A stretch of DNA of 64,000 nucleotides, taken from Chloroflexota bacterium. Its GTDB lineage: Bacteria; Chloroflexota; UBA11872; VXOZ01. The notes under the pieces are model-generated. The model ran no database searches and was not told the origin of the DNA. It was given only the letters and a program-made list of their open reading frames with translations. A program made the position numbers and the translations under genes. Positions 5,671-42,987 of the stretch are shown in pieces. The stretch lies in NCBI GenBank assembly GCA_964291655.2, contig OZ219802.1, positions 2,336,001 through 2,400,000 on the forward strand, written 5' to 3'. How positions within the stretch are numbered: position 1 is the stretch's first letter; each line of letters begins with the position of its first letter.

Positions 5671-6903
5671 CTAGCCGGTTTCGAGTGCCGCCACGGGCTT
5701 TTCGGTCACCAGCCGGTGTCCGCCGTTCGCCACGAGCATGGCAACGAAAAGCGTGGGAATATTCAGCCACGCCGCCACCAGGAACGGCGCGCTGAGGTGA
5801 ACGGTTAAGAGCGCTCCCGCTCCCAAAGCGCCCACCACCGCGCCAATGTTCCAAGCCATCTCCGTGACGGCGACGAGGCGGCCTTGTTCATCGTGCGCGC
5901 CGCTTTCGGCTACCAGGAGCGGGAAGAGACCGGAAAGCCACCACGCGCCCAAGTGCCCAACGAAAGCCCCACCGACAAGTCCCCAGACGTCGTTTACGAA
6001 TATGGCCGCCAATACCGCCCCGATGATTACGAGCACCGTAGACGCGAGAACCGGCATGCCGCTGCCCCACCGGTCGGCGGCCCAGCCTACCGGCATCATG
6101 GTGGTGCCGATTGCCAGCAGGCTCACCGCATAGAAGAGCGCCGGCGCCACGGGGGACCCCGTCAAGCGCAGGAGTTGGATGCCAATCACCAGTTGCCCCG
6201 TGGCCCAATAGATCGTCGGCAGACCGCGCAGCAGAAGCAAGAGTTGCACTGAGCGGCGCTGCACCATCTGCCAATAGCTCCCCAGAGTAATGGGCTCGGC
6301 GCTCTCAAACTTTGGCGTAACCGACGGCAGCCAAAGCTGCGCGCCAAGGGCGGTGAGGAAGCCCAAGGCTACGATGACAATGCCGGCGAGTGGAAAGCCC
6401 GACCTCGCGGCGATTATGCCAACGGCGGCGTTGCCAAGAGCCGCGCCTAACGTGAATCCAAGTTCATAGAGGTTGCCGAGCAGTCCCATGCGCTTGAGCG
6501 GCACCGCCAGCACGAGATAGGCGCGGCTGCCGGCCGCGTGCAGCGCAAAGAAGGTGCCCGTGAGCGCCGCCACAAGCACGAGTTGCCAGACCTCCTGCGC
6601 GATCAACAGGAATCCGGCAACCGCAGGGGTGAGCAACCCGATGACAAACGTTCGCTTGGGACGGAAACGGTCGGCGAGAAAACCGCCAACCAAGAGCATC
6701 GCCGCAAATACGACGTGAAACGTCGACTGAACGATCGAGGTGACAATCGGCGCACCTGCCAGCGCGCTCTCAACGTAGACTGGCAGTTGCGCGCGCGGCG
6801 GATTGGCAGCGCCGACATTGAAAAAGAGGATGACGAAGAAGGCGGACATCGCAATCCACGAGAGGGTAAATAAGCTCGCGGACGACGGTGCCGTAGTTGC
6901 CAT
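5671..6903 (-). CDS. MFS transporter (tandem paralogue of 4392-5636)
   Basis: GGFLADRFRPK and GWAADRWGS; shares GAWWxSGLxPxLVAExG..EQGRL with neighbour. Confidence 0.9.
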   Translation of the reverse strand: MATTAPSSASLFTLSWIAMSAFFVILFFNVGAANPPRAQLPVYVESALAGAPIVTSIVQSTFHVVFAAMLLVGGFLADRFRPKRTFVIGLLTPAVAGFLLIAQEVWQLVLVAALTGTFFALHAAGSRAYLVLAVPLKRMGLLGNLYELGFTLGAALGNAAVGIIAARSGFPLAGIVIVALGFLTALGAQLWLPSVTPKFESAEPITLGSYWQMVQRRSVQLLLLLRGLPTIYWATGQLVIGIQLLRLTGSPVAPALFYAVSLLAIGTTMMPVGWAADRWGSGMPVLASTVLVIIGAVLAAIFVNDVWGLVGGAFVGHLGAWWLSGLFPLLVAESGAHDEQGRLVAVTEMAWNIGAVVGALGAGALLTVHLSAPFLVAAWLNIPTLFVAMLVANGGHRLVTEKPVAALETG

Positions 6904-7176
6904 GGGCTGCGCTTGTTCGGACGGTGAAGGATGACTTCGTCAGGGACGCTGCATTGAGCGCAAGTGTACCCCGCTTGTCCGCTGTGAGCAAGTTAGAGTT
7001 AACGGCACGAAAACCGCCCAAAAAAGGAAGCAAGCCGAGGCTCGAATGCTGTTCGACCTCACGCAATGAAACTTGCGCGCAACACCGTACACAAGCAGGA
7101 TGGCTGCCTCCCTCTTGAGACCCTCGATTCCGGGAGTGCGGCGGGAGCCGCATAGCTCTGGCCGGAGGCGTACCGT

Positions 7177-7267
7177 CTCCCCCCTCTCCCTGGGGAGACC
7201 TTTGCATAACCCCACTTTCAAGCAGGGGCACTCCCTCTCCTGGGCGAGAGGGTTGAGGTGAGGGGGT
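7177..7267 (+). repeat. Truncated plus complete REP-A with an intervening GAGACCTTTGCATAACCC IS-like end
   Basis: CCCCTCTCCCTGGGGAGACCTTTGCATAACCCC followed by CTCCCTCTCCTGGGCGAGAGGGTTGAGGTGAGGGG. Confidence 0.65.
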
Positions 7268-7381
7268 CTTTTGTTACAATGGCCCTTTACGCTGTGCAGT
7301 GTCAAGATGTGTCAGGGCAGACTCGGTGTGCATATGGAGAGACTTCAGAAAATTCACCCTCACCCTAGCCCTCTCCCGTCG

Positions 7382-7669
7382 TGTATAGACCGGGGACATG
7401 GGTAACAGTTGTTCGGGCTCATAGGTAACACCATAGAACGAGGGGGTTTTCGTAGTATGCGATGTCCTTGCCTTGAAAGTTAGATCCACTCAATATCCTT
7501 ATGCACACTGTTTGTTTCTCTGGCACAAGCTGACAGGCGGAAAGTGAGTGCACTGTGTCGCCAGTCTCTTATCAAACCCGGACCAACCCAATGCTCTCGT
7601 AGGTGTCAATCAGTAAAATGTGTTACCCATGTCCCCGAACAACTGTTACCTATGTCCCCGGTCTGTACA
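7382..7669. mobile_element. 288-bp MITE family 1 (IS481-like TGT..ACA ends), copy 1, inserted in REP-A
   Basis: 49-bp TIRs with 5 mismatches; 5-bp TSD CGTCG; near-identical to 42383-42670; no transposase. Confidence 0.9.
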
Positions 7670-8104
7670 CGTCGAGGGAGAGGGAACGTTCTCGCTTCCG
7701 CTTGGGTTTCGCAAAGGACTCCTGGGGGAGAGGGCCGGGGTGAGGGGAGGCTTGCGCATCCGACTTGCACAGTCTGTCGTGCAGATGCTCAGTTTTGCCA
7801 GACCACAGAATTTGCCGAGTCTACGAAGACTCTATGCCAAAGCTATGGGCCTTGTGTCAGTAGCCAGTGGTGTTTCCACACTCAAAGAGCATTGTGAACC
7901 GAGTATTGCAGGCGAGGACAGTGCGCATCTTGCCTGAGCTGGACCAAAGTCGACGCAATGCGCAAGGATAAAGTGAATCCGGCGTGCCGACGATCTGCTA
8001 ACCATCACTTCTGCAAACGCGGGAATCTGTATGGCGAGACGGCAAGAAGTACCAACGTATAGCAAAACCGGGGAAAGAGTTTCGCGCCGAAAAGAAGCTG
8101 AAAT

Positions 8105-8272
8105 TCGGCCTGTGCGGGGCTGACATGCATACCATGGTGCCAGCCGTCAGACCGCCGCCAGGTAGTTCAACCCTTGCCGCCAGCCAGGCAATGAAGATGT
8201 CCTACTGCCCGGTAAGCGTACCACCCAAGCGAAGGACAAGCGCCGGGCCACGCATTGACCACATCTTGAGGA
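8105..8272 (-). ncRNA. Candidate structured RNA, possibly 6S RNA
   Basis: Non-coding ~165 nt directly downstream of rel; ends can pair; internal hairpins TGTCCT..AGGACA and TTGCC..GGCAA; GGACA..GGGTTGAAC..GACGGCTGGCAC layout loosely resembles 6S RNAs; no covariance model run. Confidence 0.4.
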
Positions 8273-8304
8273 GCTAAGTGTTTCGAACTGCGCAAGTCCT
8301 CAAA

Positions 8305-10722
8305 TCAGTTATCTCGTTGGGGACGGTCGGTGCGCACGTCCCGCTGCACACTGACTACGCCGCCGACGCGTTCGATTTTGGCCATGAGGTCGGCCAGTCC
8401 GCCCACGCCGGTTACCTCGACCGTGAAGGTAATGGTGGCCGTGCCGCCGTCGGTGTGAACATTGGCGGCATTGATGTTGAATTTCTCTTCGGTCACGACG
8501 GTGCTAATGTCGCGCAGGAGCCCCGGTCTATCCATGCACTCGGCGCGCAGGGCTACCGGATAGAGAGTCTGTTGCTTGCTCGCGCGGGACCAGGATACAT
8601 CGGCGAGAGTACCCGGCGGGCCATTCTGACGCACGCGGCGGCAGTCGCTGCGATGGACCTCCACACCGCCATCGACAATGTAGCCCTTGATCTTGTCATT
8701 TTCCTGGGGGCCGCAGCACTGCGCCAGGTGAAGCGGCAGATTGCGCGCGTCATGACATAATACTTGGTCACCCCAATCCACCGGTACCAAGCGTTCTTTG
8801 TCCTTTACGCTGTGCACGTTGCGGCAGTCCCGGCGGTGTACGGTTACGCCCCGCCCGCGCGTAATGTAGCCGACAATGTGATCGCCGGGTAACGGCTTGC
8901 AGCAGGTTGCGAGACGGGTAAGCATGTTGCCCTCGCCCATCACCTGCACCGTACCCGTCGTCCTATCCGTCCGCGGTTCCGCAGGTAGAAAACTCGGCTC
9001 TACAGGAGCGGGTCCCGCTTGCTCGCTAGAACGACTCAGGTTCGTGACCACTTGCTGGGTGGAAATGGCGCCGTAGCCGATGGCCGCAAAGAGGTCCTCC
9101 GCCGTGTTGAAGGTGAAAGACTTGCACAACGTGCGAACGCGCGCCTCATCCACGCTGTTCAGGTCGCCCTGCCCCAAGCGCTGGATCTCTTTGTCCAGCA
9201 TGTCTTTGCCCCGCGCGACGTTCTCCGCGCGTTCTTGTTTCTTGAACCACTGGCGAATACGCTCGCGGGTGTGGCTGCTCTTGACGACGTTGATCCAGTC
9301 GCGGCTGGGGCCTTTCGGCGCCTTGCTCGTCTGAATGGCAACGACGTCGCCATTCTGTAGCTCCGTATAGAGCGGCTTGATTTGGCCGTTGATCTTGGCG
9401 CCGATGCACCGGTGTCCCACGTCGGTATGAATGCGATAGGCAAAGTCGATGGGCGTGGAACCGGCGGGCAGATCTTTCACATCTCCACGCGGGGTGAACA
9501 CAAAGACCTGGTCCTCGAAGATGTCGGCCTTGACGGTCTCAACGAAATCTCGCGCGCTCGAAAGCTCTTCTTGCCAGGTCAGCAACTGGCGTAGCCAGGC
9601 CAGACGTTCTTCCACGTTGCCACCCCGCGCTCCCTCTTTGTAGCGCCAATGGGCGGCGACGCCCAGTTCAGCTTCCTGGTGCATGTGCTGGGTACGGAGC
9701 TGCACTTCCACCGGCTGGCCGCGCGGCCCCATGACGGCAGTGTGCAATGAACGATAGTTATTCGACTTTGGTACCGAGATGTAGTCGTCGAACTGGCCGG
9801 GTATCGGCTTCCACAGGGTGTGCACTAAACCGAGCGTGGCATAGCACTGTTGCACGGTGCTGACAATGACGCGCAGGCCAATGAGGTCGTAGATTTCCTG
9901 GATGCCCACGCCCTTCCGCTGCATCTTGAACCACGTACTCGTAATGTGCTTCGGCCTGCCGCTCACCTCTCCCTGAATGCCGGCGCGCTTGAGTTCGTGC
10001 GTGAGGGTTTGCAGCGCTTCTTGCAGGACTGTGTCCTGCGCCGAGGATCTCTCCGCTAAGGTGGCCTCAATCTGCCGATAGACATCCGGATGGAGCACGG
10101 CGAAGGCCGCGTCCTCCAACTGCCACTTCCAGTGACCCATACCGAGTTGATTGGCGAGGGGCGCGTAAATCTCCAGGGTTTCGTGGGCTTTGCGGCGCTG
10201 CCGTTCCGGCTCAACATAGGCCAGCGTGCGCATATTGTGCAGGCGGTCCGCGAGCTTGACGATCACCACCCGGATGTCCCGTGCCATCGCCAGAAACATC
10301 TTACGGAGGTTCTCGGCCTGGGTATCTTCCAGATTCAAGAAGTCGAGCTGGGTGAGTTTGGTAACGCCGTCCACAAGCAATGCCACGTCGTCGCCAAATT
10401 GAGTCCTCACGTCATCCAGCGTTACGTCGGTGTCTTCCACGCAGTCATGGAGCAATCCGGCGCAAATGGTGCTGGTATCCATGCGGATTTCGGCGAGCAG
10501 GAGCGCGGTGCAGAGGGGGTGCTGCGCAAAGGGTTCGCCGGACTTGCGTACCTGCCCTTCGTGGGCGCGGTCGGCGAAGGCAAAGGCCTGTCGAATGCGG
10601 TTGAGTTCCTGCTTGCGCGCGTCGGGCTCTCCGCTCACATACGCGGCTACAGACGCGAGCAGTTCGTCGACCGTGCGTAATTGGGTCTCGTCGGGTGACG
10701 TGGCCGAGTGTGCCAGTGCCAT
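8305..10722 (-). CDS. relA: Bifunctional (p)ppGpp synthetase/hydrolase (long RSH) with duplicated zinc-finger domain
   Basis: HD motif GLLHDCVEDT, KLADRLHNMRTL, YRSLHT, EVQLRT, TGS (DFAYRIHTDVGH), two CC..H..C domains, C-terminal ACT (DRPGLLRDIS). Confidence 0.95.
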   Translation of the reverse strand: MALAHSATSPDETQLRTVDELLASVAAYVSGEPDARKQELNRIRQAFAFADRAHEGQVRKSGEPFAQHPLCTALLLAEIRMDTSTICAGLLHDCVEDTDVTLDDVRTQFGDDVALLVDGVTKLTQLDFLNLEDTQAENLRKMFLAMARDIRVVIVKLADRLHNMRTLAYVEPERQRRKAHETLEIYAPLANQLGMGHWKWQLEDAAFAVLHPDVYRQIEATLAERSSAQDTVLQEALQTLTHELKRAGIQGEVSGRPKHITSTWFKMQRKGVGIQEIYDLIGLRVIVSTVQQCYATLGLVHTLWKPIPGQFDDYISVPKSNNYRSLHTAVMGPRGQPVEVQLRTQHMHQEAELGVAAHWRYKEGARGGNVEERLAWLRQLLTWQEELSSARDFVETVKADIFEDQVFVFTPRGDVKDLPAGSTPIDFAYRIHTDVGHRCIGAKINGQIKPLYTELQNGDVVAIQTSKAPKGPSRDWINVVKSSHTRERIRQWFKKQERAENVARGKDMLDKEIQRLGQGDLNSVDEARVRTLCKSFTFNTAEDLFAAIGYGAISTQQVVTNLSRSSEQAGPAPVEPSFLPAEPRTDRTTGTVQVMGEGNMLTRLATCCKPLPGDHIVGYITRGRGVTVHRRDCRNVHSVKDKERLVPVDWGDQVLCHDARNLPLHLAQCCGPQENDKIKGYIVDGGVEVHRSDCRRVRQNGPPGTLADVSWSRASKQQTLYPVALRAECMDRPGLLRDISTVVTEEKFNINAANVHTDGGTATITFTVEVTGVGGLADLMAKIERVGGVVSVQRDVRTDRPQRDN

Positions 10723-41726: not shown

Positions 41727-42368
41727 TTAGCGCAGGTCTTCGCCGGTAAGCAGGAGCTCGCCAGGTTGGATCTTGACGTCCGTCACCCGTATCCCGTGCT
41801 CCGTCCTGAAATAGGAGTCGAGCTTCTCATTGACCTCAGCGGTGGCCTCCGCAATGTACCATGCCGGCACCGAAATGAAGCCAATCTTCCCCTTCACCAT
41901 CTCAGCTTCTATCCTGCCGTTGCGCACGACGAGGCGTCCGCTCACCTGAATTGTCGCGCGGAAAGGTCGCTCCAGCCTGCCCCGGATATTGAAGGCGTCT
42001 GGCTCGAACGTCAGGACGACGTTCGATACCTCCCCTTCATCGTCGCTTGCCGCGATGGCTGCTACGACCTTAGGAGTCAATTCCTGTGCGGTAAGTGTGA
42101 GCATATACTGCCCCGGCGCTGGGGAGGGACATAGGTATTCGGGCATTGCCAGTGGATCCCCTTGCGGCGGCAGGCAAGACACCCATGTCGTCGCTTGCGC
42201 CGCGGGGACGGGCACTAGGGGTGTTTCTTTCGTCTGCGGCGCTGCTATCTCGCCGCCGCACTGTGCAAGGAACAGCATACACGCGAGAATAGCTAACCCT
42301 TTGCAGGCCCATGCGTACCTCTGCCAGACAGTTGGAATCGGTCCGGAGGGGTACCGGTCTCCACTCAC
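41727..42368 (-). CDS. Putative lipoprotein, LmeA/DUF2993-like domain
   Basis: Hydrophobic signal with LAQC lipobox; C-terminal domain paralogous to 42988-43707; start placed at GTG 42368 because the longer ORF runs through the MITE. Confidence 0.65.
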   Translation of the reverse strand: MSGDRYPSGPIPTVWQRYAWACKGLAILACMLFLAQCGGEIAAPQTKETPLVPVPAAQATTWVSCLPPQGDPLAMPEYLCPSPAPGQYMLTLTAQELTPKVVAAIAASDDEGEVSNVVLTFEPDAFNIRGRLERPFRATIQVSGRLVVRNGRIEAEMVKGKIGFISVPAWYIAEATAEVNEKLDSYFRTEHGIRVTDVKIQPGELLLTGEDLR

Positions 42369-42382
42369 CCCGGCCCTCTCCC

Positions 42383-42670
42383 TGTATAGACCGGGTACAT
42401 GGGTTACACATGTTCGGGCACATAGGTTACACCATAGAACGAGGGGATTTTCGTAGTATGCGATGTCCTTGCCTTGAAAGTTAGATCCGCTCAATATCCT
42501 TATGCACACAGTTTGTTTCTCTGGCACAAGCTGACAGGCTGAAAGTGAGTGCACTGTGTCGCCAGTCTCTTATCAAACCCGGACCAACCCAATGCTCTCG
42601 TAGGTGTCAATCAGTAAAATGTGTAACCCATGTCCCCGAACAACTGTTACCTATGTCCCCGGTCTGTACA
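42383..42670. mobile_element. 288-bp MITE family 1, copy 2, inserted in REP-A
   Basis: TGTATAGACC..GGTCTGTACA ends; 5-bp TSD CTCCC; near-identical to 7382-7669. Confidence 0.9.
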
Positions 42671-42987
42671 CTCCCCAAGGAGAGGGAGGTCTTCTCGCCT
42701 GCCGGCCCGGGTTGTGCAGAGTCCTCCTGTGGCTTGTAACCACATCCGCCCCATAGCGCAGTACCTTGGTACCCGATAAAACGTCCTCACTTACTCATAG
42801 TACAGAATTCACTGTCGTCAGTGTCGGATGTGGGACACTGGAGCATGGCGTAAAGCAACGGCGCAGAGCCAATTCATAAGCAACGATGCACGAAACGTCG
42901 ATCCCTTCGCACCACGCTCCAGGCAATTGGGTAAGTGACTACTCCCTACACAGGGCGCCAGAATCCTCGCCGGCAATCAGGGTCCGG

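Follow-up and report, generated by a model that had tools for sequence, protein, structure and literature searches.

REP hairpins as insertion sites of an IS481-family insertion sequence and its MITEs in a Chloroflexota bacterium

Insertion sequences (IS) of several families insert into repetitive extragenic palindromic (REP) sequences. The accessible text of Tobes and Pareja 2006 (PMC1525189) names the families IS3, IS110, IS4, IS256 and IS5, and lists IS621, ISPpu9, ISPpu10 and ISPa11 (IS110) together with ISRm22, ISRm5 and ISNm1106 (IS4, IS256, IS5) as REP-targeting elements. For IS1397 and ISKpn1, experimental evidence cited in the same text suggests that the specificity stems from the transposases themselves. 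According to the accessible parts of two further articles, elements of the IS110 type use a DEDD recombinase together with a guide RNA, i.e. a bridge or seek RNA (PMC11208160, PMC11187229), and the accessible part of a third describes inverted-repeat structures as the transposition targets of IS1272, which leaves no target site duplication (TSD) (PMC5678879). The term IS481 does not occur in the accessible text of Tobes and Pareja 2006, and full-text literature searches, supplements excluded, yielded no description of REP or hairpin targeting by an element of the IS481 family. Here, we analyzed a stretch of 64,000 nt from a Chloroflexota bacterium (the window, G000:C2:2336001-2400000; the assembly consists of two contigs with 3.47 Mb and 59% G+C), which contains two copies of a 288-bp MITE (miniature inverted-repeat transposable element), each of them splitting a REP hairpin. 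It is almost certain that these MITEs, together with an IS481-family IS encoded outside the window, represent a REP-specific system.

Copy 1 occupies positions 7382-7669 and copy 2 positions 42383-42670, both on the plus strand and both at intergenic sites. The copies are 96% identical and share the termini TGTATAGA...TCTGTACA, which are of the TGT..ACA type. The two elements, their length and their ends had been proposed from the sequence alone, and all of these features were borne out. The proposed terminal inverted repeats (TIRs) of about 49 bp were measured as 50 nt with 90% complementarity in an inverted-repeat search with copy 1, and a 17-mer is indeed present twice at each end, with a start-to-start spacing of 23 nt. 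In copy 1, the left TIR (7382-7431, plus strand) contains the 17-mers at 7391-7407 and 7414-7430, which are presumed transposase binding sites, and the right TIR (7620-7669, minus strand) contains them at 7621-7637 and 7644-7660. The predicted 5-bp TSDs flank the elements exactly, CGTCG at 7377-7381 and 7670-7674 in the case of copy 1, and CTCCC at 42378-42382 and 42671-42675 in the case of copy 2. An Rfam search of window positions 7100-7900 gave a sole match, which was below threshold (17 bits vs 49.5), lies outside the MITE and was attributed to chance.

Removal of the element and one TSD restored a REP hairpin at both sites, as expected from the original prediction, with the arms CCCTCTCC(C) and (G)GGAGAGGG, a short loop, and a CCCTCACCC-like tail at the left. 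Of the REP that is split by copy 1, the left half (7357-7381, plus strand) comprises the tail CCCTCACCC at 7357-7365, a spacer, the near arm CCCTCTCCC at 7369-7377 and loop bases, and the right half (7675-7684, plus strand) contains the far arm GGGAGAGGG at 7676-7684. For copy 2, the left half (42361-42382, plus strand) consists of a tail at 42361-42371, GG, and the near arm CCCTCTCCC at 42374-42382, and the right half (42676-42686, plus strand) of the loop CAA and the far arm GGAGAGGG at 42679-42686. Counted from the start of the arm, the cut is at position 9 for copy 1 and at position 5 for copy 2, in line with the predicted difference of 4 nt.

The whole assembly was searched for further copies by blastn with copy 1 as the query. 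This yielded 45 full-length MITE copies of 287-289 bp, 33 of them with 96-100% identity, 11 with about 75% identity (287 bp), and one with 69% identity. Classes of 16, 7, 7 and 5 identical copies are located at different sites. In addition, 24 copies of an IS of 1265 bp were listed by hand from matching end pairs 1265 bp apart; a tblastn search confirmed the same 24 copies and additionally retrieved a second IS, present in four copies, as well as a single fragment. Together, the 69 elements account for 1.2% of the genome. Short end fragments at C2:921069-921134, 1397818-1397854, 1965525-1965576 and 2293073-2293117 were excluded from this number.

The empty sites were rebuilt by orienting each of the 69 elements and reading 45 nt on each side, and the target hairpin was defined as CCCTCTCC-loop-GGAGAGGG. 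With exact arms, the genome contains 161 empty hairpins, the reversed genome used as a control contains none, and 60 of the 69 elements are located inside such a hairpin. When up to one mismatch per arm was allowed, 229 empty hairpins were found (12 in the reversed-genome control), and 66 of the 69 elements were inside. A definition with up to two mismatches per arm was dropped, since it gave 1164 matches in the genome and 951 on the reversed genome. The hairpins with up to one mismatch per arm represent 0.18% of the genome, and the binomial P for 66 of 69 is about 4e-177, which should be read as an order of magnitude that overstates the case, because copies within the genome and loci of the same metagenome-assembled genome (MAG) are not independent. 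About 22% of the hairpins are occupied by IS481-type elements. The targeting of REPs that had been proposed on the basis of the two window copies therefore extends to the collected copies of the genome, and it was not the case that most of them lie outside REPs. As expected for REPs, the target is a short imperfect palindrome that occurs 229 times empty and 66 times with an IS481-type element, besides hairpins that hold other IS types, and, as expected for a REP-targeting IS, the elements are found at a reproducible position and their removal restores the REP.

Three elements are not inside such a hairpin. The first is the MITE at C2:1507574, which is inserted into a different hairpin with the stem CCCCGTA/TACGGGG and has the TSD ATACG; the second is the degenerate MITE copy with 69% identity; and the third is an IS at an arm-tail junction of a REP. 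The CCCCGTA/TACGGGG hairpin, with the loop CTCGA, is itself repeated and has a GGGAGAGGG arm on one side and a GGGTGAGGG tail on the other (C2:1507540-1507590, and locus L029 of a relative). In both genomes, G000 and that of L029, the TSD at this hairpin is ATACG.

Several observations showed that the elements inserted into pre-existing REPs. The composite repeat that hosts copy 1 (7182-7750), which resembles a bacterial interspersed mosaic element (BIME) and contains several REPs in alternating orientation, has 58 paralogues within this genome that run across the junction without interruption. In genome G002, the exact empty site predicted for copy 1, with a single CGTCG, is present (G002:C8:232088-232362). 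The TSDs are located within the REP. The tail of the REP is found on either side of the elements with equal frequency, MITE copies of identical sequence have REPs of different subtypes at their sides, and the many empty REPs exist without any element, so that a REP moving together with the element was not what the copies revealed. A longer element that includes the REP halves, which is one form of an alternative with practically no probability, is at odds with each of these points. The other form of this alternative, a derivative of a Tn7-, Mu- or IS21-type element, was considered because of the TGT..ACA ends, the repeated end sites and the 5-bp TSDs. Tn7-like, Mu-like and IS21 elements likewise have termini of the TGT..ACA type, a site that is present twice at each end, and TSDs of 5 bp, and the fold model of the transposase described below has IstA and TnsB among its nearest structures.

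Allele-specific comparisons were limited by the relatives. At the locus of copy 1, the contigs of the closest relative, G008, break at repeats, and at the locus of copy 2, the contig of G008 breaks at the element. In G003 and G005, the entire REP unit and the MITE of copy 2 are missing: window positions 42303-42725, a REP-bearing unit of 135 bp plus the MITE, are absent from the orthologous intergenic region, and therefore the REP unit itself has been gained or lost between species. Four public runs were compared with the region of copy 1, all of them made up of short contigs that are interrupted at the repeats. A joint that skips the MITE of copy 1 (7378 to 7673) is present in the public runs X1 and X2, where the shorter side has 22 nt and any empty REP is a possible source. 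Both runs (X2 has a sponge metagenome label) carry parts of window positions 6400-8700, with about 97-98% match in the unique flanks; in the runs X11 and X12 the unique flanks of the same region match without differences. The composite repeat around copy 1 (7182-7381 plus 7670-7750), with its alternating REPs and conserved linkers, has at least 58 paralogues, and copies of it are also present in related genomes.

The original prediction had placed an IS481-like transposase elsewhere in the genome, and an autonomous IS with the same TIRs was indeed found. It has a length of 1265 bp and a single open reading frame (ORF) of 377 aa, which is intact in 24 of 24 copies; 11 copies are identical. The termini are TGTATAGA...TCTGTACA, and the TSD has 5 or 6 bp. 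No copy is located inside the window, and the nearest (C2:2406626-2407890) starts 6.6 kb beyond the window end. Elements of the IS481 family have a single ORF, a length of about 1.0-1.3 kb, TGT ends and short TSDs, and the IS fits this description with its 1265 bp, TIRs that start with TGT, and a TSD of 5-6 bp. The transposase scored 290.4 bits with the IS481 model NF033577 of NCBIfam (cut-off 224; match to residues 12-298), but was below the cut-off with the NCBIfam models for IS3 (116 vs 160 bits), IS21 (67 vs 160 bits), ISNCY and IS630. The Pfam domains rve, rve_3, HTH_32, HTH_28 and LZ_Tnp_IS481 were detected; one ORF thus encodes an rve-type DDE core and an N-terminal helix-turn-helix (HTH) region, and the arrangement of IS3, with two ORFs and a frameshift, is absent. 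An origin from Tn7-, Mu- or IS21-type elements, which have a module of several genes (TnsB/TnsC, MuA/MuB or IstA/IstB), was ruled out by the single ORF in 1265 bp, a score above the cut-off for IS481 only, and the absence of room for helper genes.

The transposase was also inspected for a targeting domain. Its last 80 residues extend past the IS481 family profile, and a Pfam search with the C-terminal 98 aa found no family. An AlphaFold2 model based on 18 sequences shows an RNase-H-like core in addition to HTH domains, and at the C-terminus a small beta-barrel, which is modeled with confidence (predicted local distance difference test, pLDDT, of about 87-93). In a Foldseek search with the whole model, the nearest structures were IstA, TnsB, MuA and retroviral integrases. 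Judging from Pfam and the model, the architecture is ordinary for this enzyme class, and no added targeting domain was seen.

The left about 105 nt of the MITE align to the left end of the IS, reaching the region of the start codon, and the right about 110 nt align to the 3' end of the ORF as well as to the right end of the IS. Because the MITE aligns to both ends, it is an internal-deletion derivative of the IS. Three sub-lineages were distinguished. M1, which includes copy 2 of the window, has a left end that is identical over 51 nt to that of I1, the main lineage of the IS; M3 has the TIR variants of IS lineage I2 at both ends; and in M2, which includes copy 1 and has 7 identical copies, both arms are right-end-like. 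No stop-free frame is common to M1/M2 and M3. A conserved small ORF in the MITE was considered and rejected, as the frames differ between the sub-lineages. The status as MITEs, as originally proposed, is thus sustained by 45 short, non-coding copies with 50-nt TIRs, 5-bp TSDs and ends that match a resident IS. The window elements are non-autonomous deletion derivatives of the 1265-bp IS481-family IS, and the sequences indicate that the 377-aa DDE transposase of the 24 IS copies most likely moves them in trans.

The collected insertions allowed the rules of target use to be deduced. The TSDs of the 67 elements with a rebuilt hairpin (up to two mismatches per arm) have 5 bp in 48 cases and 6 bp in 15 cases, and are missing in four. 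The orientation of the elements relative to the REP tail is 32:32. The shared orientation noted in the original prediction therefore holds for the two window copies, but is a coincidence that does not extend to the genome. In contrast to the orientation, the position is strongly biased. Seven elements without a rebuilt hairpin, without a TSD or with an ambiguous tail were dropped; in the 62 others, the TSD falls on the tail-side arm 57 times and at the mirror position five times (p 3e-12). The insertion consensus ...GGCCCT^CTCCC^CAGGGAGAGGG places the cut at the loop-proximal end of the arm that adjoins the C-rich tail. The tail itself turned out to be very important: 63 of the hairpins with a tail are occupied and 152 are free, whereas one tail-less hairpin is occupied and 77 are free (p 5e-9). 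The length of the spacer also has an influence, with 53 occupied and 151 free hairpins for spacers of 4-5 nt, and 4 occupied and 56 free hairpins for the 7-nt subtype (p 0.001); copy 1 of the window is inserted in this under-used subtype. Finally, when the far arm is shortened to GGAGA and tail, near arm and loop are unchanged, none of 31 hairpins is occupied (p 9e-5), a comparison that confounds the length of the stem with its sequence. As sites with a truncated far arm are empty and tail-less sites are nearly unused, the bases at the cut site are not sufficient, and the far arm and the tail matter. Since the use of a site depends strongly on the tail, what is read must go beyond a symmetric hairpin.

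In the genome, 121 hairpin variants combine the arm CCCTCTCC with a far arm GGAGA that is followed by CCTTTGC, e.g. at window positions 7182-7200. These variants belong to composite repeats, and IS481-type elements are never found in them. Read from the sequence, an alternative hairpin in which the tail pairs with the far arm explained the off-centre cut no better than the ordinary hairpin. The G-rich strand of tail and near arm has, by eye, four G-runs that are 2-3 nt apart and is quadruplex-prone (e.g. window positions 7727-7749, plus strand).

The original prediction had also stated that the targeting does not follow an exact sequence. This proved correct in a narrow sense, as the TSD sequences of the 62 classified insertions are diverse, the cuts are spread over several nt, one different stem was used, and truncated sites are empty; recognition of a structure, recruitment by a protein, and reading of an extended sequence would each be compatible with this.

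The same rules bear on the possibility that insertion was random or weakly biased and that selection has purged the copies outside of harmless REPs. This has a very low probability. In its favour, REPs are regarded as extragenic, and the two copies of the window are at intergenic sites, but the hairpins make up a share of the genome that is far below the non-coding share, purging would hardly confine 57 of 62 TSDs to a few nt on one arm, and the nearly identical neighbours with a truncated arm are never hit. In addition, the 11 identical IS copies and the 16 identical MITE copies point to recent bursts, which would have left little time for purging. Both survivorship and a REP that is part of the element are effectively excluded.

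The REP is also used by other mobile elements. The second IS481-family IS has a length of 1287 bp, a transposase with 55% identity, the ends TGTATAGACC...GGTCTATACA, and 4 copies (C2:1707151-1708269, 1755262-1756380, 1906093-1907211 and 2408103-2409221). All four copies are in the same REP, where they duplicate the first 5-6 nt of the tail-side arm (CCCTC or CCCTCT), and the cut is 4-5 nt further out than that of the main IS. An IS of the IS1182 family (NF033551, 364 bits vs cut-off 270; about 1.65 kb, e.g. C1:64924-66567) has 25 copies that are 99.9-100% identical, none of them in the window. In 23 of 23 complete copies it is located in the loop of the REP, with both arms 4 nt away; 13 of the 23 have an exact duplication of the 4-nt loop, and 6 have one with a single mismatch. 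Short elements with IS1182-like ends (GAGGCTGTCTCATAA...) abut REP arms at about a dozen sites (e.g. C1:742193 and C2:1965584) and are possibly MITEs of the IS1182-family IS. Each of the two contigs terminates within a copy of the IS1182-family IS, and therefore they possibly represent one replicon that is broken at this repeat.

Relatives of the transposase in other MAGs were analyzed next to the resident copies. From 569 stretches in species-representative genomes, 80 loci were kept, which encode transposases with 57-85% identity and are mostly from MAGs of Chloroflexota or Dehalococcoidia; in addition, there are single contigs with the labels Planctomycetota, Desulfurivibrio, Desulfobaccales and Thiotrichales. 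The element ends are kept (TGTATAGACCGGGGACAT...). TIRs and a TSD were found at 60 of the 80 loci; five loci without TIR, one with a flank that was too short, and 14 without TSD were excluded. At 39 of the 60 loci, the TSD is no more than 6 nt away from the apex of a perfect stem that has 6 bp or more, compared to 21 of 600 control positions from the same loci, where it should be kept in mind that many loci share a MAG and are not independent events. In the 39 cases, the TSD is on the tail side 25 times, central 8 times and on the far side twice, and the tail was ambiguous in four. In relatives with a 7-nt loop the TSD is the loop centre. As far as the sequences tell, this comparison shows that the habit of targeting REPs is conserved in the relatives.

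How the REP is recognized was weighed with these data. It might be that a non-B form of the REP, i.e. a cruciform or hairpin, possibly with the quadruplex-prone strand of tail and near arm, is recognized and not a sequence. Such a mode of recognition is conceivable, and we consider it unlikely rather than far-fetched. Three IS types with two unrelated transposase families share one REP, a hairpin with a different stem was hit once here and once in a relative, and truncation of the stem abolishes use. In the relatives, the cut tracks the apex even though the distance to the arm motif varies, with loop-centred TSDs for 7-nt loops, and the four G-runs on one strand of tail and near arm, as read from the sequence, would also be compatible with a special structure. 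However, a staggered duplication of 5 bp implies a paired duplex as the substrate, and the shift of the cut by 2-4.5 nt onto one arm (57:5) does not fit a plain symmetric hairpin. Furthermore, tail-less hairpins with full arms are nearly unused (1 of 78), and the subtype with the 7-nt spacer is under-used (4 of 60) in spite of equally good arms. A more far-reaching version concerns a whole clade of small single-protein IS481-family transposases, from Chloroflexota MAGs and from contigs with the labels Desulfobaccales, Thiotrichales and Planctomycetota. In place of a sequence, this clade would read an asymmetric structure composed of a hairpin or cruciform and the quadruplex-prone tail, and the same structure would attract the unrelated IS1182-family element. 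We regard this version as rather improbable; if true, such REPs would be general, structure-encoded landing pads that shape the accumulation of mobile DNA.

The use of one site by several unrelated IS, as well as the dependence on an asymmetric tail, would also fit a protein that is bound to the REP. In such a case a host factor, for example a nucleoid protein, a gyrase-like protein or a REP-associated nuclease, would recruit or activate the transpososome. The genome has one candidate gene, its sole Y1_Tnp gene (like REP-associated tyrosine transposases, RAYTs, or IS200; C2:2523382-2524209, minus strand), which was recognized with a score of 30 bits and has a visible HUH motif. Nevertheless, no CCCTCTCC-type REP is present within 1.5 kb of this gene. 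Terminal GTAG or CGTC tags were not seen on the REPs, and CGTC occurs solely within the loop of a single subtype. Contigs with labels of other phyla show the habit as well, which would require a conserved host partner, and the transposases of IS1397 and ISKpn1 appear to set the specificity themselves, according to the text cited above (PMC1525189). The recruitment by a host factor therefore has a low probability.

As a whole, the data are very probably best explained by a REP-specific IS481-family IS with its MITE; the choice of the target would reside in the transposase complex. Integration is specific for REPs and neutral with respect to orientation, has a stagger of 5-6 bp and a defined position in the REP, and requires the tail and both arms. 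The transposase would bind the shared 17-mer sites at the ends of the IS and mobilize the MITE in trans. Both elements integrate by a 5-bp, sometimes 6-bp, staggered cut at the loop-proximal end of the tail-side arm. The complex might read the whole REP, including its tail and its two arms, as a duplex that is distorted or bendable, and not the few bases at the cut site. That this reading is intrinsic to the transposase, in analogy to IS1397 and ISKpn1, is the version that we favor among the mechanisms considered, as somewhat more likely than not. Because the nearly identical ends would make the complex symmetric, the orientation would be random, and because landing in extragenic REPs would spare genes, 69 copies could accumulate.

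Several points weigh against this explanation. The statistical tests are affected by the non-independence of the copies and loci, the spread of some of the copies could be due to the duplication of larger repeats instead of transposition, and the comparison with the shortened far arm mixes two variables. The hairpin with a different stem was used by the MITE at C2:1507574 and by the relative L029. The TSD is absent in 4 of 67 elements, and a 5-bp TSD with one mismatch is present in 6 of 67; these imperfect TSDs may result from recombination between copies or from assembly errors in homopolymers. The catalytic core has a low confidence in the fold model, which has a mean pLDDT of 70 overall. 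Lastly, the insertion of the IS1182-family IS into the same REP fits a general structural or host-factor hot spot equally well.

The behaviour is of a known kind, the targeting of REPs as safe sites, and would be new at the family level for IS481. IS481 would be the sixth REP-targeting family beside the five of Tobes and Pareja 2006, and one with a large MITE progeny. The variants of the REP in the genome are natural controls that define the needs of the target (both arms, the tail and a short loop), which are usually obtained by mutagenesis, and they are directly testable. The combination of one protein of 377 aa, a site of roughly 32 bp and a precision of 66 of 69 may be of interest for work on compact site-specific integrases. 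With three types of IS at one REP, and with most of the IS load in the form of REP insertions, the genome supports the view that REPs are safe havens that allow mobile DNA to build up in compact genomes.

Of the described systems, the IS3-family elements IS1397 and ISKpn1, whose targets are the palindromic units (REPs) of BIMEs in enterobacteria, resemble the present one in having an rve-type DDE transposase related to that of IS481, insertion at the tip of a REP hairpin, a short TSD, and BIME-like arrays. In contrast to them, the IS described here has a single ORF without frameshift and scores as IS481, its TSD of 5-6 bp is on the tail-side arm, its 50-nt ends carry two 17-mers each, and it has a large progeny of 45 MITEs in an uncultured Chloroflexota host. 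With the REP-targeting elements of the IS110, IS4, IS256 and IS5 families, as far as the accessible text describes them, it shares that all or nearly all copies are in REPs and that several IS types use the REPs of one genome. However, elements of the IS110 type have no TIRs, whereas the present element is a DDE IS with TIRs and TSDs and without a sign of a guide RNA. IS1272 also seeks hairpins, like the IS1182-family IS in the loop of the same REPs, but its transposase (DDE_Tnp_1 type) is unrelated to that of the IS481 type, and it leaves no TSD, in contrast to the 4-nt loop that is duplicated by the IS1182-family IS here. IS1272 is a member of the IS1182 family. The closest likeness in the element itself is to IS481 of Bordetella and its family, with which it shares the match to the family model, the single ORF, the size, the TGT ends and the short TSDs. 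The canonical IS481 is described as having a preference for the short palindromic target NCTAGN, whereas the target here is a REP of roughly 32 bp, and the transposase has an additional C-terminal beta-barrel of 80 aa past the family profile.

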